A stretch of 64,000 nucleotides of DNA from an uncultured Desulfobacter sp. (GCA_963665095.1 OY762069.1:4768001-4832000); one strand, 5' to 3'; positions 2,057-19,388 are shown, counted from the first letter of the stretch. The notes: generated from the letters alone by a model not told the origin. Numbers and translations: made by a program.

Positions 2057-2116
2057 TTGGGGTCAGAGTAAAATTAAATTGTGCGCAATTTAATTTTACT
2101 CTGACCCCAATTATTT
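2051..2116. terminator. 31-bp perfect inverted repeat; bidirectional terminator or REP-like hairpin
   Basis: aaataattggggtcagagtaaaattaaattg-tgcg-caatttaattttactctgaccccaattattt fills the gap between two convergent stop codons. Confidence 0.85.
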
Positions 2117-2637
2117 TATAGTTCTGTTATTAGCCTGTTGATGGTCTGGAGGTACTCTTCCCGTTTGATTTCATGGCCGTTTTCCAGGTCTGCCTTGAAC
2201 CGCTCCAGGGCTTGCCGGGTGTGCGTGCGGACTTTATTGGTCTGATTCAGGGTTCTGGACATGGTATTGAGATCGTTTTCAAGTTCCGAAAACCAGTCGC
2301 CTTTTCTGAAGCTGATATGCTGCTCAGGCGGATGCCCCTGGGCCATTTCCGACATGATTATACGCAATTTTTTTATAGGCCCGGCAATGGTGGTGGTGCG
2401 CCTGGCAATAAAGAAGAGAACCCCTGCAATAAAAAGCAGACAGAGTATCGCCAGGATAACCAGAGAGCTGGTATTACAGGACACGGTCAGATTACTGTCC
2501 AGGTAAATCAGATAAAACCAGGACATGGCAAAACCGGTGAGCAGGATACCGGGAATTTGCAGCACAGCAACAAAAAAGGCCCACCCCAGCTGCAATTTGG
2601 GATTGACGATTACTTTACGTTTGAATTTGTTTTTCAT
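2116..2637 (-). CDS. Small two-TM membrane protein with HAMP-like domain
   Basis: Two hydrophobic helices, then IAGPIKKLRIIMSEMAQG...FRKGDWFSELENDLNTM, a HAMP-like pattern; RBS gaggag upstream. Confidence 0.7.
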   Translation of the reverse strand: MKNKFKRKVIVNPKLQLGWAFFVAVLQIPGILLTGFAMSWFYLIYLDSNLTVSCNTSSLVILAILCLLFIAGVLFFIARRTTTIAGPIKKLRIIMSEMAQGHPPEQHISFRKGDWFSELENDLNTMSRTLNQTNKVRTHTRQALERFKADLENGHEIKREEYLQTINRLITEL

Positions 2638-2648
2638 GCTTCTCCTCT

Positions 2649-3029
2649 TTACGGCCCTGTACGGGTCATATCATCTTCTGTTCCAATAAGTCCGTCCGGC
2701 CCGGGGCTCTGAAGGGTATAGGCTTTACCATCCCGGGAGAGCAGGTAGACCATATCATTTCCCCAATGATCCACCATGACAGCCTTTTGTTCGTTTTCCT
2801 TGAAATTCTGTTCCAGCCAGCGCTCAAACCGCTTTTCTGTGGGCAGCCGACCCTTTTTCAAATATTCATAATCCAGCATCAGGCTGATGGTCCGCATATC
2901 CCCAGCCGTGGCCACCTGGCGGGCCATGGCCGTGGTTTCATCGTAAAACTGCATGATGCTGTCGGAATTCCCGGCAATCAGCCCCAGGGTAATTCCGCCC
3001 ATAATCAGCCGTCGAATAATTTCAACCAT
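2649..3029 (-). CDS. GspG-like pseudopilin domain protein lacking a class III signal
   Basis: VDHWGNDMVY...YTLQSPGPDGLIGTEDD matches the GspG C-terminal pattern DPWG..Y...SxGPDG..GT.DD; no G|FTLxE motif. Confidence 0.75.
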   Translation of the reverse strand: MVEIIRRLIMGGITLGLIAGNSDSIMQFYDETTAMARQVATAGDMRTISLMLDYEYLKKGRLPTEKRFERWLEQNFKENEQKAVMVDHWGNDMVYLLSRDGKAYTLQSPGPDGLIGTEDDMTRTGP

Positions 3030-3043
3030 AATCAGTTACCGGC

Positions 3044-3598
3044 CTATGCTGCCGGATGCTCCACTGTATTTTCGCTGTTTGTAATTTTACGTTTTTTTAA
3101 CCGGAGAAGGGCCAGGATTCCCACTCCCAGTGCAAGGCCTGCAATACTGACCGGCATCACATATTTTTTATAGTAATAGGCGGTTTTTTTAACATAGGTA
3201 TACATCTCAACCGGTGTCTTGCCCGGCACCTCAAATGCCCAGATTCCGGAGTCAAGCCGGACAATAGTGGCATGGTCCTCGAAGATTCCTTTGCCCTGCT
3301 TGATATCTTTGGCTTTGAATCCTTTGCTCATATCAAGCGTTTTAAACCGGACTATGGCACGATCTCCCTGCTGGTCCACGCCCAGGAATGTGTTTACATA
3401 AAACCGTTTCTCCGGCCTTTCAAATTTCCCCTTGTAAAACTCCCTGTGTACATAGGATTCGAAAAAGTAAGCAATATCATCAATGGTGAGCACCTCCTTT
3501 TCCAGAGGCACCCTCATCCGGCCTTTGGTGCTGTGGGCCATGGCCTGGGACTGGAACCCGAACACCAGAACCAGACAAAACAGAAAAATGTGTTTCAT
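3044..3598 (-). CDS. Exported protein with C-terminal membrane anchor; predicted mature N-terminal His
   Basis: Start MKHIFL with RBS gaggtg; signal peptide ending AMA|HSTKG; C-terminal TM followed by RLKKRK. Confidence 0.7.
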   Translation of the reverse strand: MKHIFLFCLVLVFGFQSQAMAHSTKGRMRVPLEKEVLTIDDIAYFFESYVHREFYKGKFERPEKRFYVNTFLGVDQQGDRAIVRFKTLDMSKGFKAKDIKQGKGIFEDHATIVRLDSGIWAFEVPGKTPVEMYTYVKKTAYYYKKYVMPVSIAGLALGVGILALLRLKKRKITNSENTVEHPAA

Positions 3599-3664
3599 AA
3601 AATCACCTCTTGCAGTTTGAAGCGTTATTTCCATAATGATCTTAAAGTCAGTTAATCACATTCA

Positions 3665-4579
3665 TCAGGCCGCATCCCCGTCACCACCGCCCTTGGCCGT
3701 ACGTTCCAGGATAAAAGCGTCCAGCTTGTCCTGGTTCACCTTGACCTTATATTCTTCTTTCAGGCGGTCATAGGTGTTCTGCCACGCTTCCCGGTATCTG
3801 GCATAAAGCAGATCATTGCGGATATAGGCCGCTTTTTCTTCATAGGAATGCACCACAGGGTCTGTTTTTGATACCAGTTCAAACAGATACCATGCCGCAT
3901 CTATATTATGGGGGCCGGATAAGCTGCCCGGTTCAAGTGTTGCAATGACCTGTCGCCAGGCCGGCTTAAATTTTTTCAGGGACCTGGTTCCGATGTCACC
4001 GCCCCTGTTCGCCGTCTGTTTGTCCACGGAATAACGGGCCGCCGCCTCAATAAAATCCATCTGTGCCCCCTCAATGATCTGGCGCGCCTCAAGAGCTGTC
4101 TGTTCATCACTGGCTTTAATCATTCGTACACTGAGCAGGGACGGGCTGGTATAGCTCTCCTGGTTGGTTTCATAAAACTCTTTGAGCTGGTCCTCAGTGA
4201 ATTGGTCTTTATCGATTTGGGGCACCAGATGTTCCTGCATCACTTTTAAGAACAAGTCCGACATATACGCATGGATCTGCGCCCGGATCCGGGGATCCTG
4301 GTGCAAGTTCTCTTTCAGGCCTTTGGCAATGATCATTTCCATATTCACGGCATGATCAAAAACAAACTCAGGGGTTAGCTGTTCTGGCCGGCCTCTGAAC
4401 TGTGACGAGTTTTTTAATTTTTCATAATGGGCGTCCAGATCCTGGGCCGTGAGACACCCGCCGTCAAACTCCACCAACGCATCATCCCTGGAATTGCATC
4501 CCCAAAGGCAGACACACAAACAACTGATAAGTAGAACCGCTGGAAAAAGAAACCGAGCTTTCTTCATGTTTTTCTCCAT
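3665..4579 (-). CDS. PpiC/parvulin-type peptidyl-prolyl isomerase lipoprotein
   Basis: Lipobox LWGC; rotamase motif FIEAAARYSVDKQTANRGGDIG; SurA/PrsA-like helical domain. Confidence 0.85.
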   Translation of the reverse strand: MEKNMKKARFLFPAVLLISCLCVCLWGCNSRDDALVEFDGGCLTAQDLDAHYEKLKNSSQFRGRPEQLTPEFVFDHAVNMEMIIAKGLKENLHQDPRIRAQIHAYMSDLFLKVMQEHLVPQIDKDQFTEDQLKEFYETNQESYTSPSLLSVRMIKASDEQTALEARQIIEGAQMDFIEAAARYSVDKQTANRGGDIGTRSLKKFKPAWRQVIATLEPGSLSGPHNIDAAWYLFELVSKTDPVVHSYEEKAAYIRNDLLYARYREAWQNTYDRLKEEYKVKVNQDKLDAFILERTAKGGGDGDAA

Positions 4580-4620: not shown

Positions 4621-5820
4621 TTATTGGGCGTATAGAGCAAACATCCCTGCCACCAGCCCCCAAGCTACGTATCCCACAATCGAACCCAGGATGATAATCA
4701 GCACCGGCTCAATCATGGCAGTCATCTTGGCAATTTTGCTCTCCAGGATCTGCTCATGCAGATTCTCCACAGACCGCATGGACTGATCCATCAACCCTGT
4801 CTCCTCGCCAATTTTGATCATGGCCTGGAACATAGGCGTGAAAAACCGCTTTCCCTTCAGGGCTGAAGAGAGGGCCAGCCCGGCCATAACCCGCTGGTTC
4901 ATATCCTCGATGAGACGTTTCACCTCCAGGTTGGGCACAGTACCTGCCACGGAATTCAGGCTGTCAATCAGGGTAATCCCGCTTTCCAGAAGCGATGCAA
5001 AGGTCCTTGCAAACTGGACGATCACCCCGTAGCGCATGATCGGGCCGACCACGGGAACATGGATTTTATACCGGTCAATGTATAACCGGGTGGACGGGGT
5101 TGCCATCAGCAGGACAATAAGCCCTGTCAGGATAAAGGCGCCTGTAAAAATACCCATGACATTGGATTGCAGAAACTGGGAGGCATCCAGCAGGAACTGG
5201 GTGTTGGCGGGCAGTTTGCGCCCCTGCAGAAGTGTGGCAAATTTAGGAATCACAAAGCCCACAAAAAAGCCGATCACCACAACCGTGACCACAAGAATCA
5301 CAGAGGGGTAGATCATGCTCAACACCATTTTGCGCCGCAGGGCGGCTTTGCCCTCCAGGTAATCAGATATCCGATCCAGGACCACATCCAGAATACCGCC
5401 AAGCTCTCCGGCCCGGATCATGTTCACCACAAGCGTGGAAAAAATTTTGGGATACTTGGCAAAGGCATCCGAGAGCCGGACACCGCCTTCAATATCCCCC
5501 TTGATATTGATCAGCGCGTTCCTCATGGTCCGGGACTCCGACTGCATGTGCAAGATTCCCATGGACTCGGAGATGCTTAGATTGGAGTGGATCAGGGAAG
5601 AGAACATCCGGAAAAACAGCACCAGCTCCTTGGTGCCCACCCCAAAAGAAAACGGCATCCCGCCGATTCCGGCCGCTGCACCCGTGAGTTCATAAATATC
5701 CTGGATAATAAACCCGTCCGCCGTTAGCAGCCGGGCAGCCGCCCCTTCATCCGGAGCTGTAATAGTGTTTTTGACCTTGTTACCTTCCGGGTCCACCGCA
5801 GAGTATTTAAAAATGGGCAT
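4621..5820 (-). CDS. pilC: Inner-membrane platform protein, PilC/GspF family
   Basis: MPIFKYSAVD start; GELGGILDVVL, MIYPSVIL, GEETG, IEPVLII motifs. Confidence 0.92.
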   Translation of the reverse strand: MPIFKYSAVDPEGNKVKNTITAPDEGAAARLLTADGFIIQDIYELTGAAAGIGGMPFSFGVGTKELVLFFRMFSSLIHSNLSISESMGILHMQSESRTMRNALINIKGDIEGGVRLSDAFAKYPKIFSTLVVNMIRAGELGGILDVVLDRISDYLEGKAALRRKMVLSMIYPSVILVVTVVVIGFFVGFVIPKFATLLQGRKLPANTQFLLDASQFLQSNVMGIFTGAFILTGLIVLLMATPSTRLYIDRYKIHVPVVGPIMRYGVIVQFARTFASLLESGITLIDSLNSVAGTVPNLEVKRLIEDMNQRVMAGLALSSALKGKRFFTPMFQAMIKIGEETGLMDQSMRSVENLHEQILESKIAKMTAMIEPVLIIILGSIVGYVAWGLVAGMFALYAQ

Positions 5821-5832: not shown

Positions 5833-7482
5833 TTACCCCAGGGTTACCCGGGCGATCTCTTCGGGGGTGGTTCTGCCCTGCCGGATTTTGTCAATTCCAT
5901 CCGACCGCATGGTCCGGTAAGCGGTATGTGCCAGGGCATAATCCCGGATCTGCTCGAAAGTGGCCCGTTGCATGATCAGGGAGCGGATCTGTTCATCCAC
6001 GGAAAGCAGTTCATACAGCCCCATTCTGCCCCGGTAGCCGTTGGTGCAGTTGGGACAACCCTTACCCCTCTGGACATCAAAGCATTCGTCGGCATCACAC
6101 TCCAGCATGGACAATTCCGAAGGTGTCACTCTGTGGGATCCGGTACAGGAGGGACACACCTTTCTAACCAGGCGCTGGGCCAGTACCGCCCTTACAGAGG
6201 CTGCCACCAGAAACGGCTCGGCCCCCATGTCAATCATCCTGGAAAAGGCGGACGGCGCATCATTGGTATGCAGGGTGGAGAGTACCAGATGCCCGGTGAC
6301 TGCTGCCCGAAGCGCAATATCCAGGGTTTCGGAATCCCGAATCTCACCCACCATGATAATGTCCGGGTCCTGGCGCAAAATGGCCCGCAGCGCATTGGCG
6401 AAGGAGAGCTTTTCCCCGGAATCCACCTGGGTCTGGTTGATGCCCCGCAAACCCAGTTCCACAGGATCCTCAATGGTGGTGATATTGGTGGCTTCACTTC
6501 TCAATGCCTGCAAAGATCCGTAAAGGGTGGTGGATTTACCGGACCCTGTGGGCCCTGTAACCAGCACAATTCCGTAGGGTGCGGTCACAGCCCGGTTGAA
6601 TTCGGTCAGCATTTCATGGGTCATGCCCAGCCCGTCCATGTCAATGATCTCGTCATGGGGAGGCAACAGCCGCAGCACGGCTTTTTCTCCGTTGGTCACA
6701 GGCAACGTACTCACCCGCACATTCACCCCGTCCATGGAGAGATTCAACAGCTTGGGTTCAAAGAGAAAAGAGCCGTCCTGGGCCCTTCTGCGTTCAGAAA
6801 TATCCAAACCAGCCATCACCTTGATCCGGGAGACAATCCGGGCCGCCAGGTCAAAGGGCAGCACTTCGGTTCGGGTCATCTGTCCGTCGATTCTGAACCG
6901 GATCACCAGCTCATCCATCTCCGGTTCCACATGAATATCCGATGCCCCGGCATTCACCGCCCGGATCATCAGCTTTTCAAGTAGTTCAATAATTAAGGTG
7001 GAGTTCTCACCAGAGAGCATGGCCTCGGGTCGGATGGTGGTGTCAAATCCCATGCTGTAGCAATGGTTCTGCAGTTTTTTCACCCTGGACCGGGTGGTGA
7101 GCACCAGCTTAATCTGCCGCTTGGAAAGCCGGGACATATTCTGGATCACGGCCTGGGGCACTGGCCCTGAACAGGCCAGAAGAATCTCATTGTTCTCACC
7201 CAGGGCCACGGGCAACACCCCTGACTTAAGACACATCTTCTGTGGGATGAGATTCACCAGATCCCTGCGCACGTCCAGTACGGTCTCGGACATCAGTGGA
7301 ATGCCCAGGAAATCAGACAGATCCTGGAGCATGCGACCCTGTTCCAGAAGCCCGTCCTTGACCGCGACATCCCCGAATTTTTCTTTGGAGATTTTCTGCT
7401 TGGAGACAAGGGTTGTGACCTGTTCCTGGGTTAAGGCCCCCTGGTTGACCAGATATTCTCCAAATCGCTCTTTTCTTGCCAT
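5833..7482 (-). CDS. pilB: Assembly ATPase, PilB/GspE family
   Basis: ASDIHVEP, GPTGSGKSTT, TIEDPVE, LRQDPDIIMVGEIRD, GHLVLSTLHTND, CxxC...CxxC; degenerate MshEN-like N-terminus. Confidence 0.93.
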   Translation of the reverse strand: MARKERFGEYLVNQGALTQEQVTTLVSKQKISKEKFGDVAVKDGLLEQGRMLQDLSDFLGIPLMSETVLDVRRDLVNLIPQKMCLKSGVLPVALGENNEILLACSGPVPQAVIQNMSRLSKRQIKLVLTTRSRVKKLQNHCYSMGFDTTIRPEAMLSGENSTLIIELLEKLMIRAVNAGASDIHVEPEMDELVIRFRIDGQMTRTEVLPFDLAARIVSRIKVMAGLDISERRRAQDGSFLFEPKLLNLSMDGVNVRVSTLPVTNGEKAVLRLLPPHDEIIDMDGLGMTHEMLTEFNRAVTAPYGIVLVTGPTGSGKSTTLYGSLQALRSEATNITTIEDPVELGLRGINQTQVDSGEKLSFANALRAILRQDPDIIMVGEIRDSETLDIALRAAVTGHLVLSTLHTNDAPSAFSRMIDMGAEPFLVAASVRAVLAQRLVRKVCPSCTGSHRVTPSELSMLECDADECFDVQRGKGCPNCTNGYRGRMGLYELLSVDEQIRSLIMQRATFEQIRDYALAHTAYRTMRSDGIDKIRQGRTTPEEIARVTLG

Positions 7483-7517: not shown

Positions 7518-8675
7518 TCAACGGAACCATCTGCGCTTGCCGGTTGTTTCATTCTCAGTCTCAGGTGCCTGGTCCACCATCAGCCGCTGTTTCATCAGGT
7601 TTTTGTTTTTGGCCGCTGCCACAGCCGTCTCCACAGAAATTTTGCCCTTTTTAACCAGCTTAATCAGGCATTGCTCCATGGTCATCATGCCGTCGTTGAA
7701 CCCGGTTTCAATATTGGAATAGATCATGTCATCCTTGGCCTGGCGGATGAGATTGGCAATGCCTGGCGTTGCAAACATCACCTCAACCCCGGGAATCCGG
7801 CCGGTATTCCCGGCATTGGGCAGAAGCCGCTGGGACACCACTGCTTTGAGAGTCGATGCCAGCTGCTGCCGGATCTGGGGCTGTTCACCGGCTGGAAACG
7901 CCCCCACCAGTCGGTTAATGGTGGAGACACAGTCCCGGGAGTGAAGGGTGGAAAAGACCAGGTGGCCTGTTTCTGCGGCCATGATGGCCGTGCGCATGGT
8001 TTCAAGATCCCGCATCTCGCCAACCAGAATTACGTCCGGGTCCGCACGAAGGGCATCTCGCAGGGCGGAAGAAAAAGAGGATACATCAGAATAAAGCTCA
8101 CGCTGGTTGATTATGCTCATTCGGTTTTCATGCACGTATTCAATGGGGTCCTCAATGGTGATGATGTGGTGGTTCTGGGTGTCGTTGATCTGGTGGATCA
8201 CCGTGGCCAGGGTGGTGGACTTACCGGAGCCTGTCACCCCTGTTACCAGGACCAGACCATCCCGGATGGTGGGCAGCCGGGACAAACAGTCAGGCAGTCC
8301 TAAACTTTCAAATGTGGGAATCCCGGAAGCCAGGAGCCGGAACGCCGCTGAAATGGCACCTCGCTGGTAATACGCTGCCACACGAAACCGGCCCACGTCG
8401 TTGATGCTCACGGCAAAATCCACGGACTTCTTTTCCTCAAGCACTTCCCGGTAACGGTCCGTGAGCACCTGGTCCATGAGCCGCCGGATATCCTTGGAAG
8501 AATAGGGCGCATGCCCGGGATGAGGCGTAATTTTTCCCTTGATCCTGTACATGGGCGGCATGTCTGCGGCCAGGTGAAGGTCAGATGCCCCCATCTCAAG
8601 CGTCCGGGCAAACAGTTCCCTGATATCTTTTTCTCTGACCCCTTCGGTGAAGGGAATGTCCACACAAACTCTCAT
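7518..8675 (-). CDS. pilT: Type IV pilus retraction ATPase, PilT/PilU family
   Basis: GASDLHL, TGVTGSGKSTT, TIEDPIE, LRADPDVILVGEMRD, AAETGHLVFSTLH, GIANLIRQ (AIRNLIRE-like), GMMTMEQ. Confidence 0.93.
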   Translation of the reverse strand: MRVCVDIPFTEGVREKDIRELFARTLEMGASDLHLAADMPPMYRIKGKITPHPGHAPYSSKDIRRLMDQVLTDRYREVLEEKKSVDFAVSINDVGRFRVAAYYQRGAISAAFRLLASGIPTFESLGLPDCLSRLPTIRDGLVLVTGVTGSGKSTTLATVIHQINDTQNHHIITIEDPIEYVHENRMSIINQRELYSDVSSFSSALRDALRADPDVILVGEMRDLETMRTAIMAAETGHLVFSTLHSRDCVSTINRLVGAFPAGEQPQIRQQLASTLKAVVSQRLLPNAGNTGRIPGVEVMFATPGIANLIRQAKDDMIYSNIETGFNDGMMTMEQCLIKLVKKGKISVETAVAAAKNKNLMKQRLMVDQAPETENETTGKRRWFR

Positions 8676-8690: not shown

Positions 8691-10748
8691 CTAATAAATC
8701 ACATCTTTTTCCTGTTGATCGTTCAGGCTTGCCCGGCCTTTATCTGTTTTGCCCGGATTCTGGGTTTCGGCCTTTTGCCCCGCATCCACAGACTCAGCTG
8801 TCCTTTTCTCATCGGTCAGCAGATTCTCCCGGCCATCAAGTATGGTGGTGTGCGAGCTTCTGCGCTGCAAAAATAGATCGGTCTCCTCACCAGCCAGCCC
8901 GGGATGGTTGATAATATGCGGGGTGATAATGATCACAGTCTCGGTTTTCTGGGTGGAGTCGTTCTCCTGGCGGAACAGGTACTTGAGAAGAGGCACATCC
9001 CCTAAAAACGGGGTCTTTTTCACCGAGTTGTCCACGGTTTCCCGGATGATGCCACCCAACGCAATGGTCTGTCCGGACTTGGCCGTGACAATGGACTCAA
9101 TCTCGCTTTTGGTCTGGCCGTCCAGGGGGAACTCAATGAGATTGCCGTTGTCATCGGACAGGGTCACCGCGGTCATGTTGTACTGGGCCGAAGAGATTTC
9201 GGCATCAATCTCCATGGTCACGGTATTGTCTTCATTGATAAAGGTGGAGATCTCTAAGTCAGTGCCAAGCTCTTCCCTGAGGATATCAACAATAAAGGTG
9301 TTGATGGTGTCCCCGGAATCGCCGATGGGAATGGTCTCCTTGGACACATCATCCCGCAGGGGCACCTCTTCGCCTACAAAGAAATTCACCGTGGCGTTGT
9401 TGGCGCACATCAGAAAGGGCGATGATATGGTGTTGGCCCGTCCCTCGGACTCATACAGCGAGATCTGGGCCTGGATATTGCTGAAGGAGAGAATCCCGCC
9501 CAAAGTGGAGCCGGAGGCCGCGCTGCTGGCCAGGGTGCTCAGACCGCCCCCTTCATTTACTGTTCCGCCCGGTGTTATACGGCTGTCCGTAGTGCTGCCG
9601 GAATAATCTCCGAAATCAAACTGGAAAAAGCTTTCAAACTCGTCCCCCAGGGTAATCTGCAGAATTTTTACCTCCAGCAATACCTGACTTGTGGGGGTGT
9701 CCAGGGTTTCAATGATCTTTGCCATCTCGTTGATCAGGCTTTGGTCCAGAGAACGGGCAATGATGGTGTTGTTCCTCTTGAACACCGTGAGAATGGCCAA
9801 AAGCGGCTTTTTACTTTTAGTGCTGCTCTTTTTAGCTGTGGCATTATTGGCAGCGGAGACGGCAGCCGCAGCCGCAGCCAGGGTCTCCTGAAGGACCTGC
9901 TGCTGTTTCGCCTGGTCTGCCTGGGCACTGCTGCGGCTCTCCTGTCCGTAGCTACTCTGTTTTGTCAGTTGATTCATGAACACAATGCGCTGGGACGCAG
10001 AATTATCCAGGTCCGGGCCGTCATATTCCCCGCCCAGATCCACCTCCTCCTCCGGATCCACATGTCCGTATATCTTTTCATCCTCAATGGCGGCCAGGTA
10101 AACTTCCGAGCCCATGAGTGCCTGGATGATTTTGGCCATGTCCGCGGCATTGGTGTATTTAATGGAAAACGCCCGGGTATGTTCGGTCTGGCGGATCTCA
10201 ATGTCATTGACATACTCCTCCCGGGTCATCAGGGTCACAATATTATGCCCCTCCCGGAACCACAGGTTGTTGAGACGGCAGATGGTTTCAAGGGCGGACC
10301 TGAGACTGATATCCTGCATGTAAATACTGATATTGGTGTTTTCAACGGTTTTGGTGGGCACCACATTGGTGCCGCACAACCGGGTGAGCAGTTCTGTAAG
10401 CTGTCTTACCGGCACATCGCGAAGAATCAAAGAGCGGATGATTTCAGACATGCCCTTGAGCGCGTCCGCTTCCTGTGCGCCCGCGCTCATAAGTTTTTCA
10501 GCCTGTCCCGGTTCAACTTGCGTCCCCTTGATAACCTTGACAATGGGCTTCTCCCCGTCCGGATAGAGGTCCTTGATAGTGGGGTGTTTTTTCTCCACCC
10601 CGTCAATGACCATGCGGGTATTGTATGGATTGGGTGCGGCCAGGGAGTCCGGGCTTTCAGGTTTGGAATCATTGCACCCTGCCATCAGGGTGCAGGCTGC
10701 TGTGAGAACTGCCGGGAACATGAATTTTGTCAGGAATTTCTGGATCAT
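8691..10748 (-). CDS. Outer-membrane secretin (GspD/PilQ-like) with lipoprotein signal
   Basis: LMAGC lipobox; LDTPTSQVLLEVKI, GQTIALGGII, KTPFLGDVPLLKYLF, ETVIIITPHII secretin motifs. Confidence 0.9.
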   Translation of the reverse strand: MIQKFLTKFMFPAVLTAACTLMAGCNDSKPESPDSLAAPNPYNTRMVIDGVEKKHPTIKDLYPDGEKPIVKVIKGTQVEPGQAEKLMSAGAQEADALKGMSEIIRSLILRDVPVRQLTELLTRLCGTNVVPTKTVENTNISIYMQDISLRSALETICRLNNLWFREGHNIVTLMTREEYVNDIEIRQTEHTRAFSIKYTNAADMAKIIQALMGSEVYLAAIEDEKIYGHVDPEEEVDLGGEYDGPDLDNSASQRIVFMNQLTKQSSYGQESRSSAQADQAKQQQVLQETLAAAAAAVSAANNATAKKSSTKSKKPLLAILTVFKRNNTIIARSLDQSLINEMAKIIETLDTPTSQVLLEVKILQITLGDEFESFFQFDFGDYSGSTTDSRITPGGTVNEGGGLSTLASSAASGSTLGGILSFSNIQAQISLYESEGRANTISSPFLMCANNATVNFFVGEEVPLRDDVSKETIPIGDSGDTINTFIVDILREELGTDLEISTFINEDNTVTMEIDAEISSAQYNMTAVTLSDDNGNLIEFPLDGQTKSEIESIVTAKSGQTIALGGIIRETVDNSVKKTPFLGDVPLLKYLFRQENDSTQKTETVIIITPHIINHPGLAGEETDLFLQRRSSHTTILDGRENLLTDEKRTAESVDAGQKAETQNPGKTDKGRASLNDQQEKDVIY

Positions 10749-11135: not shown

Positions 11136-11678
11136 TTAAATTTTCAGGGTAAAGGCAATGGATAACGGGGATGATTTCACCCCCGAACTGGCCATCTGGA
11201 TGCCGGAAACCTCCACGGCATCCCCAAGCTGCTCAAGTTCCATCAAAAAGTTGACAAACCCTGTAAAATCGCCTTTCAGGTTCATGGTAAAAGGGGACCA
11301 GTCAATGTATTTTCCCGGTTCCCGCTCTTTGGGGGCAATGGTGATCACCTTCAGGTCGTTCATCACCATGATGGTGGAGATTTTGCTTAACAGCCGGGAG
11401 ATATCATCCGGGTTGCCCGCGTTCAGGGCCAGGTTGCCGTTCTCCTCTTTAAGTTCGGCCAGGCGCTTTTTATTCTGCTCAATGGTTTTTTCCAGTTGGA
11501 ACAGCGGAGGAATATCCTTTAGTTTGTTCAGTTCCGCCACCACTTTGTTCCGTTTTTTCAACGTGGTTTGAAGCACCTTGGTCTGGGGATCATACATATA
11601 TTTCATGTAGAAAAAGGTGCAGGCGATGATCAGTGCCGCCGCCAGCCCGAACTTTTCAAGATTGGTCATGGATTTCAT
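11136..11678 (-). CDS. pilO: PilO-like alignment protein
   Basis: N-terminal TM, coiled coil, PFTMNLKGDFTGFVNFLMELE. Start MKSMTN overlaps the upstream stop (ATGA). Confidence 0.8.
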   Translation of the reverse strand: MKSMTNLEKFGLAAALIIACTFFYMKYMYDPQTKVLQTTLKKRNKVVAELNKLKDIPPLFQLEKTIEQNKKRLAELKEENGNLALNAGNPDDISRLLSKISTIMVMNDLKVITIAPKEREPGKYIDWSPFTMNLKGDFTGFVNFLMELEQLGDAVEVSGIQMASSGVKSSPLSIAFTLKI

Positions 11679-12076
11679 TGAACTGCCTCGCTTTCCGGAT
11701 TGACATCCACCTGAACCACAAAGCTCAGCTGACTGCCGGTTTTGGCGTCCAGGGATTTGAGAACCGCTGAGGTGCACCACGCATTGTCCTGCATGGCAAC
11801 GGAAAAAAGCCCCACCCGGGTCAGATCCCAGCTCCGGCCGGTAATGGTGAAGGTGTTGGGTGTATCGGGATTCTGGGCCACGGTATCCAGCACCAGCCCG
11901 TCAGGCACGGCCCTGGCGACACCTTTAAAGCAGGTCACCAGGATGGCAAGCTTCTGGTCTGCAATCCTGTTGACAAAGTTGATGCGGTCCTGGACCGTTC
12001 GGATATCTTTTTCCAGCTGGGTGGCTTTTTTCAGCAGATCCTCATATTTCTGGATGGTACTTTTGTTTTTTTCCAC
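11675..12076 (-). CDS. pilN: PilN-like periplasmic domain (3' part of a frameshifted pilMN fusion)
   Basis: Coiled coil, then VARAVPDGLVLDTV...FTITGRS PilN pattern; has no TM of its own, the TM lies in the upstream frame. Confidence 0.7.
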   Translation of the reverse strand: MEKNKSTIQKYEDLLKKATQLEKDIRTVQDRINFVNRIADQKLAILVTCFKGVARAVPDGLVLDTVAQNPDTPNTFTITGRSWDLTRVGLFSVAMQDNAWCTSAVLKSLDAKTGSQLSFVVQVDVNPESEAVQ

Positions 12077-13185
12077 CTCTGCGAGTATTGTTTGATGTCG
12101 GACTTAAACCGCCGCTCCTGGTATTTCATGAACTGATTGTGGCCCAGAAGCCCTAGGGCCAGGACAGAGGTGGCCACCAGGGGCATCACATAGACATTGC
12201 GCTTGAGCCGGACCCGTAAAGGTTCGGAGTCATCAATCCCCACCTTGTGCATGGTCTTGCCGCCAAGCTCCCTGCAGCCTGCGCCCACGGCCGTGCCGAA
12301 TATTGCATCTGCAGGGTCTGTCTCCTTGTGGGTGATCTGGGCGGTTTTGGACAGCATCAGGGGCCGGGCTCCGGATGGAGAGAGTCGGTTTACATAGTCG
12401 GCAATTTCCGGTATGGCCGCCCCAGGACCTGTCAGCACCACCGGCTCATGGTCTGGGGCCTGGGACAGGGTGAACTTGAGGCTGCTTTCCAGATCCCGAG
12501 ATCCAACGGCCGAGGTGAGGTGGGACCGAATGGCGTCTGATGAGAAGTTCAGGGTGGAGATCTGGTCCGGGTGCCGCCCCTGGAATATGGCAAAGTTGGA
12601 ATAGTCCGTGCCGATTTCCAGAATGGCCCGGGGGATGTCCGGACTTTCCAGGAACAGGGGCATGTAAAAACTGACCTCGGGCGGATAGACCCGGATCAGC
12701 TTCAGACCGGCCGCCTTAAACCGTTCCCGCACCGCCACATAAACATTTTTTTCAATGGCCGAGATATTGACCATGATCTCGTCGGTCTCATTCTCGTATA
12801 CAATCTCGCCGGGTGCGGCCTTGGGTTGGGGCTCTTTTTCCACGCCCACCAGGGCATTGCCACCGGTGATTCCTGTATAGGATTCAATCTCCCATTTGGC
12901 AGCCTCTGACAGCTGGTAGTCCGACATGTTCGACACTTTTTTGCGGTCCATGAACAGCTCTGTGGACCGGGCCAGGGCCGTGACATACACGGCATTTCTG
13001 CCCGTATACTTAAGCGTCTCCTTCAGCTCTTTGAGGCTGTCAATGGCCGGCAGGTCTTCATCGGGCTTGGAGCGCTTCATCCCAGCATAGTCCAGGATGG
13101 CAATTTTGTTGCCCCTTCCCTTGAGCAGCACGCCTCTGATGATATCTTCACTGACTTCCACGGCCAGTATGGTCTGTTGCAGCAT
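12031..13185 (-). CDS. pilM: PilM-like actin-fold domain plus PilN TM helix (5' part of a frameshifted fusion)
   Basis: ILAVEVSEDIIR, AILEIGTDYSNFAIF, VVLTGPGA, FGTAVGA PilM patterns; ends in a TM and coiled coil that continue in the -1 frame. Confidence 0.75.
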   Translation of the reverse strand: MLQQTILAVEVSEDIIRGVLLKGRGNKIAILDYAGMKRSKPDEDLPAIDSLKELKETLKYTGRNAVYVTALARSTELFMDRKKVSNMSDYQLSEAAKWEIESYTGITGGNALVGVEKEPQPKAAPGEIVYENETDEIMVNISAIEKNVYVAVRERFKAAGLKLIRVYPPEVSFYMPLFLESPDIPRAILEIGTDYSNFAIFQGRHPDQISTLNFSSDAIRSHLTSAVGSRDLESSLKFTLSQAPDHEPVVLTGPGAAIPEIADYVNRLSPSGARPLMLSKTAQITHKETDPADAIFGTAVGAGCRELGGKTMHKVGIDDSEPLRVRLKRNVYVMPLVATSVLALGLLGHNQFMKYQERRFKSDIKQYSQRWKKTKVPSRNMRIC

Positions 13186-13218: not shown

Positions 13219-15363
13219 TTAAAATACTTGGAAAGCCGCTGTGTCCATCTCGATTGATTCCACCTGGCCGGTGCCGGCCATGGGCAGAACATTGAAGATC
13301 ACCTGTTTGAAGGACTCCCCCTCGTCCAGCACATCATCGTTATCGTCATCATTCCACACCACAAGGAACCTTGCTCCGGTGCCAAGAACAGTGCCTGAAC
13401 CGGAGAACTCAAGACAGGGACTGCCGGGCCAGGTGCCGGTACTCCAGTCATCGGAGGTCCCGTCGCTGTCCTCATCGGTCAACGCAGCACAGGTTAACAC
13501 CGTGTCATCTTCCAGGGTGCCGTCCTCATTGGTTATACCGTCCACAAAGAGCCGGGCCTTGGTGGTGGATGCCGTGGCATTGAGTACGGTGAGACTGCCT
13601 AAGGTCAGATACCCCGGCGTGAACTGATATGCCCGGATCTCCAGCACCTGGTTGTCCTGGTTTTCCGTCTGGGTCGGATCATAGTCATCAATGTCCAGGA
13701 CCTCATCAAAATCATCGGGCTCGGCCTTGGCACCATCCACAGTGGTGCCGAAATCAAACAAACCGTCCGTCCCCCGGCTCAGTATCAGCAGGGCATTGTT
13801 GCTGGTATCTTTGAAAAACAGGATCTCATTGCCCCAGGCATCCCGGATTACCTGATTCTTATCCAGGCCTTCGGGCACCGAATGATAGGCTCGGGCCCAG
13901 CCGATGCCCCAGGCTTTTTCATCCAGGTCATCCGTAACGCCGTCCTCACCCTCATCATTGTCCGCTGTGTCAGACAGATTGGGGGTCCGGGTCCAAAGTC
14001 CCCTTGGCTGACCTTTGGTATAGTCGGTGTCGGTACTGCTGACCACCATCTGATTATCCCACTGGCCTGTTTCACTTTCGCTTTCAGCCGCCTCCCAAAG
14101 AAACAGGTCCGGCAGTTCAAGCAGATCTCCTGTGTACCCGGTGTTCAGCCCCTCCGGACTTCTGCCGATGAGCGCCCGTTTAATTGAGGACAAAATTGCC
14201 GCTGTGGCTGCCCGGTTATCCGCTTCTTCCTGTTCAAACACGGTTTCATACTCATGGGAGTAAATCTTCATCACAATATTGTCCTGGTTTTCATCCAGGG
14301 TGTCGTCATAGGCTTTGCCCATGGTGTCATCGGCGTCCACACTCCAGCTGTGGCCGGTGCAGGTCCCCTTGGTGGGATATCTGGCGTCAAAGTCCGGCCC
14401 TTCGGACACTATCCAGAAGATGGTGGCATCCTCCCGGTCCGGGTCCGCTGTGATAAAAAAGCGCAATGCCCTTCCCCAGCCGTCCATGAACCGGCCGTCG
14501 GTATTCAGCAGCCGATATTTTTCCTTGTCATCAAACAGCTCGCCCATGGCAGCGTCATAATCCCCGTCTTCCCAGGTCTCCCAGCCCGAGGCGTCAATCC
14601 AGGCAGGAGGGAGCTTTTCATAGTCTGCCATACTTTTGGCATAGTGGCTGCCCGCCTCATCACTGCGGGCACTGGGCGGCAGGAGATAGGGGCCTTTCCA
14701 CTCCTCCCCCGCTTCATCTCCCAAAATTTTGCCCGGGGCTTTATGGTCTTCGGAGAGATCAAAAGGCAGATCTTCCACATAACAGGTCCACAAGCCCCTT
14801 GGCTGGCCCTCGTTTTCCGTTTCAAGGCCGCCGATGTGGTCCGCATTGTCAGTGGTGTCGTCGGTTAGCTTCCGGTAGGGGGCCAGCCATTTCCACCTTT
14901 TTTGTACAAACTCACCCGCCGGCCGGAAAAAGACGTAATCCGAGTCCATGGTGTAATCAGGCCCCTGGCCAAGGCCGGCTGTCAGGTTTTCAGGATCATC
15001 CCAGCCTGTGCCCTCAAAGCTGGGCTTGATCTCGGCCCGGGCCTCCCACAGATCCGGGAATGCCTTCATATCCCCCACATATCCGCCAATGACCCGCTGC
15101 CCGTTCTTGTCATATACCCCGGCAGGCCCCATGACGGCCTTTCTGATCCTTTCCATGGTCTCCCGGGTGATCTGCGCTTTACGGTCATTATCCATGGTGC
15201 CCAGGGCGGACCAGGCCATGGCGCTCATCATCCCTAAAATAAAGATCACGATCATGACCTCCAGCAGGGTAAAGCCGCTTTGGCAGGCAATATCTTTCCC
15301 AATGCCAATCAATGGGCTTTCCAGGGTTGTCTTGTTCTTTTTGGGGGGTGGCGTCTTTTTCAT
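13219..15363 (-). CDS. 714-aa acidic prepilin with two tandem GspG-like domains
   Basis: SG|FTLLEVMIVIFILG class III signal; GQPRGLWT, G/TGYxGD..xPDL, DxWG, SxGxD and ENQDN each occur twice. Confidence 0.85.
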   Translation of the reverse strand: MKKTPPPKKNKTTLESPLIGIGKDIACQSGFTLLEVMIVIFILGMMSAMAWSALGTMDNDRKAQITRETMERIRKAVMGPAGVYDKNGQRVIGGYVGDMKAFPDLWEARAEIKPSFEGTGWDDPENLTAGLGQGPDYTMDSDYVFFRPAGEFVQKRWKWLAPYRKLTDDTTDNADHIGGLETENEGQPRGLWTCYVEDLPFDLSEDHKAPGKILGDEAGEEWKGPYLLPPSARSDEAGSHYAKSMADYEKLPPAWIDASGWETWEDGDYDAAMGELFDDKEKYRLLNTDGRFMDGWGRALRFFITADPDREDATIFWIVSEGPDFDARYPTKGTCTGHSWSVDADDTMGKAYDDTLDENQDNIVMKIYSHEYETVFEQEEADNRAATAAILSSIKRALIGRSPEGLNTGYTGDLLELPDLFLWEAAESESETGQWDNQMVVSSTDTDYTKGQPRGLWTRTPNLSDTADNDEGEDGVTDDLDEKAWGIGWARAYHSVPEGLDKNQVIRDAWGNEILFFKDTSNNALLILSRGTDGLFDFGTTVDGAKAEPDDFDEVLDIDDYDPTQTENQDNQVLEIRAYQFTPGYLTLGSLTVLNATASTTKARLFVDGITNEDGTLEDDTVLTCAALTDEDSDGTSDDWSTGTWPGSPCLEFSGSGTVLGTGARFLVVWNDDDNDDVLDEGESFKQVIFNVLPMAGTGQVESIEMDTAAFQVF

Positions 15364-15472: not shown

Positions 15473-16063
15473 TTATTCTCTTCCCCAGGTTTTTACTTGA
15501 ATTTTGCTGCCATACCCGAAGAAGCGGTACACACCGTCACACAATGCTTTGATATTATTAGCTGAAAGATTGGTTTCAACAAAAATGCCGGAGTCTTTGA
15601 TCGGACGACCGTCTCTGAGCCAATTGCGTTTTAAGGCAAAATAAGCCCTCTTCCCTTGGACGCCCTCAATTGCCCGGGCAAACGTCTCCCTGTTTTCGGC
15701 GTAGATTCTTGCGCATAAATCAGTGAGCAAGTGCTTCCATGAAGTAACATCATGCCTTTCCCCGCCGAGTACATACCATAGCGGTTTTGTCCCCTTATAA
15801 ACTTCTTCGTGGGAAACAGTGATATATTCAAACCCGCCGACAAAACGGTTTGAGGGTGCATCATCTGTCATGTCAGAATCCGTGACGGACAGGAACCGTT
15901 TCTGGAAATAGGCCGCCACCGCCTGTTTTTCCGGCTTGAGTCCGGTTTGGTTACCGGCTTCTCGAATAATATGTTCCATTAAAATATCCGGCATATTTCG
16001 ACCCAGCGATGCCATGGTCCGGTCAAGGGCCGCTTCCATTTTTTTGTCAAGTATGGCTGTCAT
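15473..16063 (-). CDS. Hypothetical cytoplasmic protein with a C-terminal SeqA-like/'ETNLSAN' domain
   Basis: ATG 1 nt after the upstream pilin stop, RBS ggag; KPLWYVLGGE..VTSWKHLL...IFVETNLSANNIKALC. Confidence 0.6.
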   Translation of the reverse strand: MTAILDKKMEAALDRTMASLGRNMPDILMEHIIREAGNQTGLKPEKQAVAAYFQKRFLSVTDSDMTDDAPSNRFVGGFEYITVSHEEVYKGTKPLWYVLGGERHDVTSWKHLLTDLCARIYAENRETFARAIEGVQGKRAYFALKRNWLRDGRPIKDSGIFVETNLSANNIKALCDGVYRFFGYGSKIQVKTWGRE

Positions 16064-16064
16064 C

Positions 16065-17090
16065 TCAGTCTCCAATATCCCCGTTATCATTAAAATCAAT
16101 GCCCCAGAAGCTGGCCCCGGAAGAGGGATGAAACTTCTCCCCGATGGCGTTGATCACTGTGAAAAAAGCCGGGTCCTGGGCTTCGTACAAATTAATTTCA
16201 CGCACCTTTGCAATGGACAGGTCAGACGCTTCTGCGCTGGATGACGTGTCCATTGCAAAACTGGTGAACGTATCTGCGCCCAATGGATTATCTTGTTCCA
16301 GTCGCATGGAAGTGGCGCTGAGCCGGGGAATCACAAGGGAGTACCAGGCATAGTCAAAGTTGTGTGGTTCGGTGATGCCGTGGGGACAGACCGATGCATT
16401 GAACATATAGCCCTGCTTTATCAGTTCACTCTCCGGGCCCAGGCCAAAGAGAATGCAGAAATTAAGATCATTTTCCCCCCAGCCGGGTTCATCCGTATCC
16501 ACTTCAGTGGCCTCAATGACGCCGTCGTCATCACTGTCCCCGCCACCGATCATCAGGACTGCCGTGCCTGCGGCCACCTTTTCCATGACAGGGGAGGGGT
16601 TGGACACGGCATCGTCATAGGCGGAGTTCAGGTTGTACACATGGACAATGCCCATGTCCCGGAGTTCCTGTGCCTCATCCTCATCCAGATAATGCACAGC
16701 CGGCCGGCACCGCTGTTCAAAGGCATAGGCCAGCACCTCCCTGCCGTTGTCCGGGTCCTGGTCCGACACTTCCGGTTTCTGATAGTCACCGGAACTCTCG
16801 TCTGTGGAGACAATGTTAATAAGCCCGCCCGGATATTTGCCATAATCCTGGATATAGGCCGTGATGAACTTGATCAGTCTGGCTTCGTTCATGCGTCCTC
16901 CCGTGTCCGTGGCCTGGGCTGTCATTCCGGCAAACTTAGGCGCGGACATGGCCAGGATAAACCCGAGGACAGTGAGAACTATCAGGACTTCCATAAGGGT
17001 GAAACCTGATGAATTAAAGGGGAATGAAGGATGCCTGATTTTGGTCACCGAACTTGGCATTTTTATACCTGCAGATGCAATATTTTTCAT
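16065..17090 (-). CDS. 341-aa acidic prepilin, paralog of the major pilin
   Basis: SG|FTLMEVLIVLTVLGFILAMSAP; shares many blocks with 17150..18292. Start could be the next Met (MPSS). Confidence 0.85.
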   Translation of the reverse strand: MKNIASAGIKMPSSVTKIRHPSFPFNSSGFTLMEVLIVLTVLGFILAMSAPKFAGMTAQATDTGGRMNEARLIKFITAYIQDYGKYPGGLINIVSTDESSGDYQKPEVSDQDPDNGREVLAYAFEQRCRPAVHYLDEDEAQELRDMGIVHVYNLNSAYDDAVSNPSPVMEKVAAGTAVLMIGGGDSDDDGVIEATEVDTDEPGWGENDLNFCILFGLGPESELIKQGYMFNASVCPHGITEPHNFDYAWYSLVIPRLSATSMRLEQDNPLGADTFTSFAMDTSSSAEASDLSIAKVREINLYEAQDPAFFTVINAIGEKFHPSSGASFWGIDFNDNGDIGD

Positions 17091-17149: not shown

Positions 17150-18292
17150 TTAATCTTCGGCAATGGCACCGGCAGTCGGTCCGCCGTCGGCAGCAGTCGG
17201 GTTAAGGTCAATGCCCCAGTAGTCGCCGTCATCAGCAGGATACATGTGGCCTTCAGGGCACATGGTGGCAAACTGCCAGGTTGACTGAGCTTCTGAGATG
17301 TTGAAGGTCCGAACTTTAAAGTTGTCAGCATTACCGACATAGTCATAATCTGGACTGGGTTCGTCATCGGTGTAACCCACGCAGTAAGCCTGGAGACCGT
17401 CTTCAGAAGAGTCTCCGTCAATGGCGTCAATTGCGGCACCTTCAGTGGTATCATCCATTCTTACCGTAGTTGCCGTGAGACGAGGAAGTACCAGGTTGTA
17501 ATCATTGTAAGTTACGTTGTCGGCATTCTGAATGCCACCAGGGCAATGGGCTGCGTTGGCGATAACACCGTCTTTGACCAGAGCGGATTCAGCGCCCATA
17601 CCCATAACAATACGGCCAAAAAATTCAGGCTCACCCCAGCCACGCTCATAACTCGGAAGGACAAAAGCGTTACCAGAAGCGCCTGTATTGATACCAGTGG
17701 CAACCATCATAACACCAAGCCCTTCTTCAACAGTCACTTTTTCCATTTCAGGAGCTTTGGTAACGCTTGTTGCCAAAGCGGTGTCATTGGGACCAGGGTC
17801 GGTGGTGTCTGTTGAAACAGTATTATTGTAACCGGATTTAATTGCTGTGCCATCATCCAAATACGCATCATAAGCATTAAGGTTATATACAGACACAATG
17901 CCCATATTTTTGATCTCAGCGGCTTCGTTAGCATCCAGGTAATGAATCATGAAATGATTTCTTTCATTGAATTCAGCCGCCAGAGTTTCTGCACCATTGT
18001 CCGGGTCGCCGTCAGAAATAGCTGGAATCTGATAGGTATCAGCCGCTGTTTCTTCAACAATGTTGGTCAATAGGTTCGGAAAACGATTAGTTTTTTCAAA
18101 ATAAGAAGCCATATAAGTAACCATTCTGTTCTGGTTAGTGTCGCATACCGTATCAACGGCGTCGCCGGAGATGCCGGCAAGGCGGGGTGCGACCATGGCA
18201 ATGAGGAAGCCCATGATGGTCAGGACGACCAGGATTTCAAGCAGGGTAAAACCTTTTTGATTGTTAATGTTCTTGTGCTGTTTCTTTTCCAT
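17150..18292 (-). CDS. 380-aa acidic prepilin, probable major pilin
   Basis: MEKKQHKNINNQKG|FTLLEILVVLTIMG; strong RBS aaggag at 18303-18308; more A/T-ending codons than neighbouring genes; followed by a hairpin. Confidence 0.9.
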   Translation of the reverse strand: MEKKQHKNINNQKGFTLLEILVVLTIMGFLIAMVAPRLAGISGDAVDTVCDTNQNRMVTYMASYFEKTNRFPNLLTNIVEETAADTYQIPAISDGDPDNGAETLAAEFNERNHFMIHYLDANEAAEIKNMGIVSVYNLNAYDAYLDDGTAIKSGYNNTVSTDTTDPGPNDTALATSVTKAPEMEKVTVEEGLGVMMVATGINTGASGNAFVLPSYERGWGEPEFFGRIVMGMGAESALVKDGVIANAAHCPGGIQNADNVTYNDYNLVLPRLTATTVRMDDTTEGAAIDAIDGDSSEDGLQAYCVGYTDDEPSPDYDYVGNADNFKVRTFNISEAQSTWQFATMCPEGHMYPADDGDYWGIDLNPTAADGGPTAGAIAED

Positions 18293-18522
18293 TTTGTACT
18301 TCTCCTTTAAAATAAAGTTTAAGGCTAAGTACAAACAACCCACCCTCAGAGTCTGCTGCACTATGTGGCGCCGTGGGTTTCCACGGCAATTAAAAAATTA
18401 AGTGTTTTTCCCGGTATGTTCCGGGCCTTGCGGTATACCTTGTTCCGGCGCCCTGCCGCGACACAAGAAGTATTGCCTTAAATAACGGTGGTTCAAATCC
18501 TCCTTTCGGTTAAATTTGCGGG

Positions 18523-18762
18523 TTAGGGGTTTGCTGTGGGAGACACCGCCCGGGCATGCGGCCCAGCGGGCTTGAGCTGTCCTGCGTCGTAATCCACCAC
18601 ATATCGAAAGTCCTTGCCGCAATGGATAATGACCTCTTTCTGGCCTTTTTTAAGAAACCGCATTTCTACTTTCAGCTCTCCAAATCCGTCGTGCATAAAT
18701 ATATCCGTGTACAATTCCTGGATTTTGTCCAGTATGTCGCTGTGTTCCCGGGCAAGATTCAT
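18523..18762 (-). CDS. 79-aa conserved-looking small protein of unknown function
   Basis: RBS aggag; protein-like sequence (ELYTDIFMHDGFGELKVEMRFLKKGQKEVIIHCGKDFRYVVD). Confidence 0.75.
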   Translation of the reverse strand: MNLAREHSDILDKIQELYTDIFMHDGFGELKVEMRFLKKGQKEVIIHCGKDFRYVVDYDAGQLKPAGPHARAVSPTANP

Positions 18763-18862
18763 GAATCTCCTGTTCTTTTCCTTACGGCTTTGCCGGCTTT
18801 ATTGGGTGTTTTTGTCCGGGCCTGTCGGGCCCGAAGATTTGACTCATTGCTAATTCGGGGGA

Positions 18863-19270
18863 TTAACAGGCTGGAGGACCCCGGTACACCAGCCAGGCAT
18901 GAAAATCAGCCGGCACCGGAACGGGGGACCCGGGGCAGGAGAGGTCAGGACCGGGTGGGGCCGGCCTAACCTCCTGGTGACGAACGACCTGCTGCTCAGG
19001 TGCTTTGACGCATGAGTCGAAAATAGAACAGTGATGGAGGTGATACCCGTCTGTATTTCGCTTTTCAATACAGGCCACAAGACGAGGCGCACCGTTATCT
19101 GCATTCCGGTGTCCATGGGTATGAAACTGTTTCAGGTCAGACATGCCATGCCAGGACGTATGACATATTCCTGATGCGAAAAGATTGAAGGTAAACAATG
19201 CCAGCACCACAAGCACCACCATGGGCACTTCCGGTACAGTTGAATTTTCTTTTTCAAAAAGGTCAGGCAT
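18863..19270 (-). CDS. His/Cys-rich leader ORF ending in RGPP (DUF2946/CruR/CutF-like arrest peptide candidate)
   Basis: Hydrophobic N-terminal helix, HTHGH and HLHHC..C clusters, Pro-rich linker, C-terminal WLVYRGPPAC*. Confidence 0.7.
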   Translation of the reverse strand: MPDLFEKENSTVPEVPMVVLVVLALFTFNLFASGICHTSWHGMSDLKQFHTHGHRNADNGAPRLVACIEKRNTDGYHLHHCSIFDSCVKAPEQQVVRHQEVRPAPPGPDLSCPGSPVPVPADFHAWLVYRGPPAC

Positions 19271-19357
19271 TTATTCACCATATCAAACAAATCTATGTAT
19301 AAAGATTTGCCTTGTCTGTATCGACTAACTTGTATTGCTTAGACTTAAAAACAAGAT

Positions 19358-19388
19358 GCGTTATAACGCCTGATAAGATAGGTGTCAA
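19358..19388 (-). promoter_or_regulatory. sigma70 promoter of the pilus operon with a palindrome over the -10
   Basis: TTGACA (19388-19383), 17 bp, TATAAC (19365-19360); perfect 12-bp palindrome gcgttataacgc at 19358-19369. Confidence 0.7.

Follow-up and report, generated by a model that had tools for sequence, protein, structure and literature searches.

In a 64,000-nucleotide stretch of DNA from an uncultured Desulfobacter sp. (GCA_963665095.1 OY762069.1:4768001-4832000; hereafter, the window), a minus-strand operon at 2116-19270 encodes a type IV filament system that is almost certainly the Pih pilus system. Our best explanation, which we hold with evenly divided confidence, is that the operon builds a thick, acidic, retractile filament under iron shortage, predicted to capture iron. 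That the filament serves iron capture at all is an equally balanced judgment, and binding of iron by the filament itself is its least supported part. The explanation starts from what was observed directly, namely the gene content, the synteny, a separate ATPase clade, operator enrichment, and the iron-gene neighborhood in relatives. The Pih gene cluster was already named in 2012; the major-pilin assignment, the predicted iron control, the ATPase clade, and the revised anatomy are new.

The paper that described the Pih pilus, from genes Pcar_0863-0877 of Pelobacter (Syntrophotalea) carbinolicus, lists the cluster as pihD-O-P-Q-I-J-K-L-M-E-G-F-B-A-H (Table S4; PMC3543383). It reads three of the products as large prepilins, calls PihA, which has no PilD motif, the "major pilin," and takes PihH for a putative peptidase. 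The text of that paper counts PihO among the large pilins and its table counts PihP; the table is likely right because PihO has only 92 residues. The window order pihO-P-Q-I-J-K-L-M-E-G-F-B-A-H matches Table S4 one for one. As in Pih, there are three large prepilins with a PilD motif, a small GspG-like pilin-domain protein without it, a peptidyl-prolyl isomerase (PPIase), and PilT. The 79-residue protein of the window, the only one compared by sequence with a Pih protein, was 49% identical over 80% to P0260, which is PihO (E 3.4e-27). Relative to the P. carbinolicus cluster as listed, the window adds a leader open reading frame (ORF) ending in RGPP and a SeqA-like gene, carries its second pilin after pihO rather than before it, and lies outside any iron island, whereas genes for TonB/ExbBD, an Fe(III) receptor, an ATP-binding cassette (ABC) system, a flavodoxin, and AraC precede the P. 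carbinolicus cluster (PMC3543383). Iron control is unmentioned in the 2012 description of the cluster (part 1 of section 18 and of Table S4). A search of journals open without subscription found no follow-up literature on the Pih pilus. The original prediction, made from the sequence of the window, had implied an undescribed system, and in this respect it was mistaken.

A scan of species genomes recovered 41 loci, some of them second copies from one genome, mostly in Desulfobacterota and a few in genomes labeled Gammaproteobacteria, Phycisphaerae, or Brocadiaceae. This synteny survey, which the original prediction had called for, showed a conserved order: pihO, one or more pilins, a 700-residue pilin, pilMN, pilO, a pilP-like gene, secretin, pilT, pilB, pilC, PPIase, an exported protein, a GspG-like protein, and a HAMP protein. 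A pilin profile gathered 98 representatives at 50% clustering (E 1e-30 or better). In the order, 12 of 301 genomes matched the first pilin; the count was 7 of 151 in the family and 3 of 25 in the genus, a patchy pattern such as a transferable single locus would give. Cultured carriers of homologs include Desulfobulbus, Desulfofustis, Desulfotignum, and Desulfuromonas. One locus, L257 (G785), has pilB in two ORFs, the HAMP gene triplicated, and the RGPP leader shortened to 80 residues.

Sequence features upstream of the operon indicate that it is probably induced by iron shortage under predicted DtxR-family control. A Gibbs motif search settled on AT-rich sequence (233 vs 200-218 for shuffles) and was replaced by a dyad scan. 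With the window held out, TTAG-N6-CTAA ranked first of 3,840 palindromic dyads, occurring in 19 of 29 promoters against 3.7 expected; it equals the IdeR 14-bp half-site, the single-dimer site TTAGGNNNNCCTAA (PMC8464063). A matrix built from 22 sites was run on the host genome with a threshold of 9.5 bits, picked so as to include the site of the window. The top intergenic matches preceded TonB receptors, feoB-DUF4198, DUF2325, AraC genes, and an HMA2 ATPase near feoA. The box stood before 13 of 39 iron-type first genes and 109 of 2,646 others at 9.5 bits, and before 7 of 39 and 29 of 2,646, respectively, at 12 bits. Among the related loci, 12 of 21 had FeoB, TonB receptor, DUF4198, DUF2325, or HMA2-ATPase genes upstream, compared with 6.7% of random host windows, and at two loci, L199 and L201, pihO comes immediately after a dtxR gene and the box. 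The host carries two DtxR-family and four Fur-family genes. Spacings of 6-9 nt between box and -35, into which the 9 nt of the window falls, were found at 6 of the 22 training sites.

The wider family of PihO points the same way. Searches with this protein, which has no Pfam family, returned 1,449 matches. After de-duplication 68 loci remained; 36 encode prepilins, for the most part a distant group some 300 residues long and accompanied by PilMN, PilT, and PilB, and the other 32 include short contigs as well as operons for FeoB, a TonB receptor, HemS, or binding proteins. HemP precedes pihO in two loci, and HemS, DUF2023, and imelysin genes also adjoin it. PihO was considered as a HemP relative, and the idea was dropped, there being no Pfam support in 27 members. 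Fur-like boxes, defined by what we take to be the Fur consensus, preceded pihO in 27 of these 68 loci and in 8 of 340 shuffles. DtxR-type and Fur-like regulators are two regulator types that point to one signal, iron. The link to metal limitation made in the original prediction is thus supported on sequence, specifically for iron.

Several observations weigh against this. The box of the window is weak (9.6 bits, rank 247 in the genome), and the nearest iron-type gene lies 37 kb from the operon. The dyad was first spotted by eye in loci overlapping the test set, and 10 of the 29 promoters lack it. Five of the 21 loci supplied the iron-gene list (without them the count is 10 of 16), and kin are not independent. 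In an independent metagenome set, only 13 of 64 loci had a DtxR-type box reaching 9.5 bits, against 14 of 320 shuffles. Finally, the host DtxR proteins are short (130-135 residues) and could sense Mn. Such short proteins would suit an alternative in which the operon responds to Mn, Ni, Co, Cu, or Zn instead of iron, through an MntR-like repressor to which this genus adds the RGPP leader as a sensor; NicO, ZnuA, CobN, and DUF4198 neighbors in some loci and a CruR-like spacing from Cys81/Cys87 to RGPP in the leader fit that alternative as well. However, the host regulon consists mostly of feoAB, TonB receptor, and AraC genes, the distant loci carry Fur-like boxes and the iron-related neighbors of pihO named above, and the Cys segment is deleted in the G785 leader, so that we regard a metal other than iron as very unlikely.

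PihP, the first prepilin (366 residues when mature), and not the signal-less PihA, is probably the major subunit, as judged from sequence motif, gene position, and codon use. Its homologs kept E5, G14, and P22 in 120 of 120 cases, and it heads the structural genes of the operon. In a codon score built on 25 small basic ribosomal-cluster ORFs and ranked over 5,210 host ORFs, PihP reached percentile 99.3, next to the likely canonical host pilA (98.9) and an mshA candidate (97.1); the 341-residue paralog stood at 22.4, PihA at 12.2, and PihQ at 5.2. Across species, an A/T shift at fourfold sites was seen in 16 of 23 PihP rows and 0 of 23 PihQ rows, and in L067 and L081 each PihP copy has a separate cyclic di-GMP (c-di-GMP) riboswitch ahead of it. 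Two points speak against this assignment: the cross-species codon test was mixed, only 14 of 23 having an S index above 0 and the A/T shift being present in 4 of 10 PihA rows as well, and the 2012 authors took PihA as the major pilin (PMC3543383). On the present reading PihA is likely an accessory protein. The 2012 proposal that PihH is the peptidase is likewise unlikely to hold; all 11 of 11 homologs have two transmembrane (TM) segments and lack GxGD, unlike an A24 peptidase. The range reported for T4a major pilins is 42-297 residues (n=1,955; PMC11046646), and PihP lies beyond it; the Pih subunits are more than twice the usual pilin size.

Predicted structures had mean local confidence (pLDDT) values of 90.3 for PihP and 89.6 for PihQ. 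With the full-length PihP model, Foldseek returned nothing at E <=0.001, and none of 48,161 chains reached Z 5; its similarity to EpsG was weak (Z 3.4, root-mean-square deviation [rmsd] 4.2, 88 aligned residues). In PihQ, two units of a helix plus a sheet each bear a GspG-like DxWG motif. Its second domain (residues 377-575) matched EpsG (Z 7.2, rmsd 2.9, 104 aligned), PulG (Z 6.5), and C. difficile PilA1 (Z 5.6), and residues 583-712 formed an Ig/CBM20-like sandwich (Z about 5), all of these being middling scores. The giant acidic pilins of the original prediction (380, 341, and 714 residues) were borne out, since they rank in the top ~1% for acidity among 4,167 host ORFs with at least 200 residues and carry a net charge of about -9 to -11 for every 100 residues. 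In the PihP head, His113, 117, 249, and 349, Cys250, Cys345, and many Glu/Asp residues are invariant. These residues would fit metal sites, and equally Ca2+ binding or a plain structural role; it counts against iron binding that the acidity may be there for Ca2+ binding or as an adaptation to salt. A conductive or cytochrome pilin was rejected (no CxxCH, aromatics 8-10%).

The extension ATPase belongs to a clade of its own, distinct from canonical PilB and from GspE. PihE scored 504 bits with the PilB model TIGR02538 (cut-off 675.65) and 491 bits with the GspE model TIGR02533 (cut-off 630.25), passing neither, and seven of seven family relatives also fell below the TIGR02538 cut-off. A quick IQ-TREE analysis of 63 rows, with 9 further family rows left out and limited references (no Firmicute, Thermus, or Planctomycetes-Verrucomicrobia-Chlamydiae reference in this or the PilT tree), placed 16 family ATPases and 7 from the distant pihO-headed family in one clade (SH-aLRT support 96). 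Canonical PilB, Neisseria included (99), and a GspE/MshE group (81) were separate, and the base was not resolved. The PilT tree gave the same grouping with weaker support (87), L122 falling outside. In these trees, which the original prediction had asked for, the ATPases nest in no canonical PilB or GspE clade, suggesting a class that current models label as type II secretion system (T2SS) or generic. Together with the presence of PilT, this supports the predicted distinct, retractile, single-locus system; the missed cut-offs for PilB, GspE, and the secretins agree with the further claim that it fits neither type IVa pili (T4aP), T2SS, nor the mannose-sensitive hemagglutinin (MSH) pilus cleanly.

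Canonical diderm T4aP share with Pih PilT, PilM/N/O, the platform, the secretin, and short-leader pilins with E5, G14, and P22 (PMC6668835). Pih differs from them in the placement of its ATPase and in lacking PilY1 and the minor pilins FimU/PilV/W/X/E, none of which was found by family searches of the locus, although the minor pilins may be supplied in trans. PilJ has a two-domain fold, and a pilMN fusion occurs in clostridia. Firmicute T4aP (S. sanguinis PilB/PilC; C. difficile) resemble Pih in their single cluster and very large modular minor pilins (PMC6916266), and that of C. difficile is reportedly under c-di-GMP riboswitch control, as in some Pih relatives; Pih, in contrast, is a diderm system with a secretin, a likely major pilin that is itself large, and an iron-type operator. 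GspG-type domains, a GspD-like secretin, and a single operon recall the T2SS, from which Pih is distinguished by PilT, an ATPase outside the GspE group, and PilM/N/O in place of GspL/M; family searches of the locus gave no matches to GspC/L/M or GspH/I/J/K. The MSH pilus is set apart by the MshL score of PihL (116 bits, cut-off 250) and by the PilT in the Pih locus.

The T2SS-like traits would also suit a piston, in which a short periplasmic GspG-type pseudopilus drives a cargo through the secretin (an iron chelator, a protein, or an iron-loaded ligand), with the large pilins as minor components, as in the 2012 description. The GspG-type folds of PihA and PihQ, the dedicated PPIase, and a secretin and platform that score highest with the GspD and GspF models, though below cut-off, are in line with it. 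Yet PilT is present in every complete locus, PilM/N/O and the ATPase depart from the T2SS as just described, codon use points to PihP and not PihA as the abundant subunit, and no cargo gene is conserved among related loci. We consider the piston improbable.

For a surface filament made of PihP, the following mechanism is proposed. An Fe(II)-loaded DtxR-type dimer would bind the box beside the -35, and its release under iron shortage would free the operon. PihP, PihD, and PihQ would be cleaved in trans by the PilD of the genome; PihE/G/I/J/K/L would assemble and extrude the PihP fiber with PihQ at the tip, and PihM would retract it. The filament would catch iron-bearing particles or ligands and pull them toward the uptake systems of the cell, while c-di-GMP, through the riboswitch in relatives and the MshEN domain, may tune the system to surface life. 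The type IV pilins PilA1 of Synechocystis (PMC4144903) and PilA of Legionella (PMC13170364) aid iron uptake; those are general-purpose pilins, whereas Pih would be a dedicated extra machine in a predicted iron regulon. A bolder extension, possible but doubtful, is a separate and widespread filament class for iron foraging, with a major pilin of ~300-365 residues, metal sites along the fiber, and PilT reeling iron minerals or heme particles to TonB/FeoB, under DtxR in Desulfobacterota and Fur elsewhere.

The c-di-GMP connection can be read differently. An iron-starvation-induced adhesion or aggregation pilus, attaching cells to minerals, partners, or biofilm richer in iron without binding or delivering iron itself, would account for the c-di-GMP-I riboswitch that precedes the pilin at 6 of 24 loci, the MshEN domain, and the terminal Ig/CBM-like domain of PihQ. 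In Firmicutes, modular pilins serve as adhesins (PMC6916266). The invariant His, Cys, and acidic residues of the pilin head and the periplasmic binding protein gene within the operon in several relatives argue against a purely adhesive role, which we judge rather unlikely.

The RGPP leader is an addition to this scheme in one genus. It adjoins the operon only in G000, G800, and G785, and two further weak matches (E about 1e-4) lie in genomes without the pilin. RGPP is retained in all three operon-linked homologs; that of G785 has lost the His/Cys-rich middle and keeps the hydrophobic start and YRGPP. No DUF2946 (PF11162) match was obtained in Pfam at E 0.05. Cys81 and Cys87 lie 48 and 42 residues before RGPP, and the corresponding spacing in CruR is 45. 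A small upstream ORF, an export signal, the Cys pair, and a 100-nt gap are shared with CruR/DUF2946 and RAPP/RGPP arrest peptides, but the leader has C-x5-C rather than CxxC, lacks DUF2946, and precedes a pilus operon (PMC9426467, PMC12992588). By analogy, it is likely a CruR-like arrest peptide, a recent add-on coupling expression to export or metal state. A role for it as the metal sensor of the whole family is not supported, the leader being confined, next to the operon, to three genomes of one genus, one of them without the Cys middle; the conserved signal is the DNA operator. In the 5' leader of the major pilin, a scan found no riboswitch in the window, where the aptamer is deleted relative to two congeners. 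Apart from the aptamer, this leader held just one short hairpin in 8 rows. A Shine-Dalgarno-like AA(A/G)GGAGG(T/A) element (18490-18505, minus strand) lies far upstream of the pilin start and recurs in 19 of 28 leaders, a raw count made without shuffle comparison; it is possibly a transcript stabilizer.

ORF reading and family searches confirmed the predicted gene list, strand, and order, including the 135-residue ORF ending in YRGPPAC, the 79-residue protein, and the three prepilins with N-methyl motifs (Table 1).

Table 1 Features of the pih operon in the window, from promoter to terminator.
Feature	Coordinates	Strand	Basis or remark
DtxR/IdeR-type half-site TTAG-TGCAAA-CAAA, predicted operator	19398..19411	-	1 mismatch; 9 nt above -35; 9.6 bits
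Sigma70-type promoter TTGACA-17-TATAAC	19360..19388 (-35 at 19388-19383)	-	read from sequence; same layout in L059
Upstream ORF: N-terminal hydrophobic segment, His/Cys-rich middle, C-terminal RGPP	18863..19270	-	genus-restricted
PihO, 79 aa, likely regulatory	18523..18762	-	marks iron-uptake and large-pilin operons
5' leader of major pilin	18293..18522	-	without the ~120-nt c-di-GMP-I aptamer present here in two congeners
PihP-type prepilin, 380 aa (366 mature), likely major pilin	17150..18292	-	motif, codon use, model
Second prepilin, PihD-like paralog, 341 aa, 34% identical to first, likely minor	16065..17090	-	codon score
SeqA-C-like ORF	15473..16099	-	Pfam E 0.014, below cut-off
PihQ, 714-aa modular prepilin, likely tip subunit	13219..15363	-	two tandem pilin domains and C-terminal beta-sandwich
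PihI, PilM-PilN fusion	11675..13185	-	split in window by assembly error near 12081
PihJ, PilO	11136..11678	-	PF04350 above cut-off
PihK, PilP-like	10759..11112	-	position and size; no family match
PihL, secretin	8691..10748	-	GspD 166, PilQ 145, MshL 116 bits, all below cut-off
PihM, PilT-family retraction ATPase	7518..8675	-	TIGR01420 444 bits, cut-off 319
PihE, extension ATPase with MshEN domain	5833..7482	-	family searches and tree
PihG, PilC/GspF platform	4621..5820	-	family searches
PihF, PpiC-type PPIase	3665..4579	-	family searches
PihB, exported, His directly after predicted signal cleavage, C-terminal membrane anchor	3044..3634	-	no family match
PihA, GspG-domain, without class III signal	2649..3029	-	T2SSG above cut-off; likely accessory
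PihH, 2-TM HAMP-like protein	2116..2637	-	family searches
20-bp hairpin, likely terminator, separating operon from convergent EAL gene	2060..2107	.	hairpin

In the window the pilMN gene is broken by a frameshift (ORFs 12031-13185 and 11675-12076). All four sequencing runs (X1, X3, X6, X9) hold one additional base behind 12081, and all 30 complete relatives have a single ORF of 426-577 residues; the split is therefore an assembly error, and the predicted fusion is right. Runs X1, X3, and X6 are possibly from the same source as the window DNA, and X9 is a diverged strain with 30 letters different. A programmed frameshift was rejected on the evidence of the extra base. The PilN and PilO domains passed the Pfam cut-off, and PilM, without a family match, was assigned by its position in the fusion. 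The promoter named in the original prediction can be read in the sequence but is missing from the list of a consensus promoter scanner. The SeqA-like ORF is likewise present, but its Pfam match does not reach the cut-off, and no such gene occurs in any related locus examined; it represents an insertion in this locus. PihL appears to be lipidated, judging from its N-terminal sequence alone. The A/S-HST motif of PihB was conserved in 12 of 12 homologs having the N terminus, one of them a repeat of the same DNA. As predicted, the locus has no prepilin peptidase; the single A24 peptidase of the genome lies elsewhere. The host also has other filament systems, with six further PilB/GspE-like and three further PilT-like ATPases.

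Other observations concern the surroundings of pih and pihO loci. In the window, a divergent pair at 19918-23630 (plus strand) encodes a membrane protein and an 880-residue protein that joins a cytochrome bd subunit I-like domain to c-type heme domains; an ABC transporter with a periplasmic binding protein lies at 53718-57120 (minus strand), and a TonB-dependent receptor operon without a DtxR-type box (1.0 bit) at 60918-64000 (plus strand). At G000:C1:2405001-2445000 (L098, L099), genes for four TonB receptors and AraC genes form an island that also has several DtxR-type boxes, and a 323-residue Fur-domain protein, about double the usual length, is encoded at G000:C1:3046255-3049599 (L091). 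Upstream of pihO in L046, L048, L064, L066, L069, and L077, TGTGA-N6-TCAC boxes, presumably of the CRP/FNR type, stand beside or replace the DtxR-type box. L032 and L053 have a small His/Asp-rich helical-repeat ORF between box and pihO. In L038, L039, L042, L061, L068, and L070, a terminator-like leader element, GAAAGTGAAGGCGTAAC...GTTACGCCTTTTT, lies upstream of pihO, sometimes twice; three of the six loci were scanned without an Rfam match, and the element is possibly an attenuator or small RNA.

PihO is a new marker of iron-uptake operons. If the present reading is true, the 2012 annotation of PihA as major pilin and PihH as peptidase needs revision, and a 366-residue major pilin widens the sizes known for type IV filaments. 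Sulfate reducers cause their own iron to precipitate as sulfide. A pilus in the iron regulon would offer an account of how they recover it, one that can be tested in the cultured carriers.

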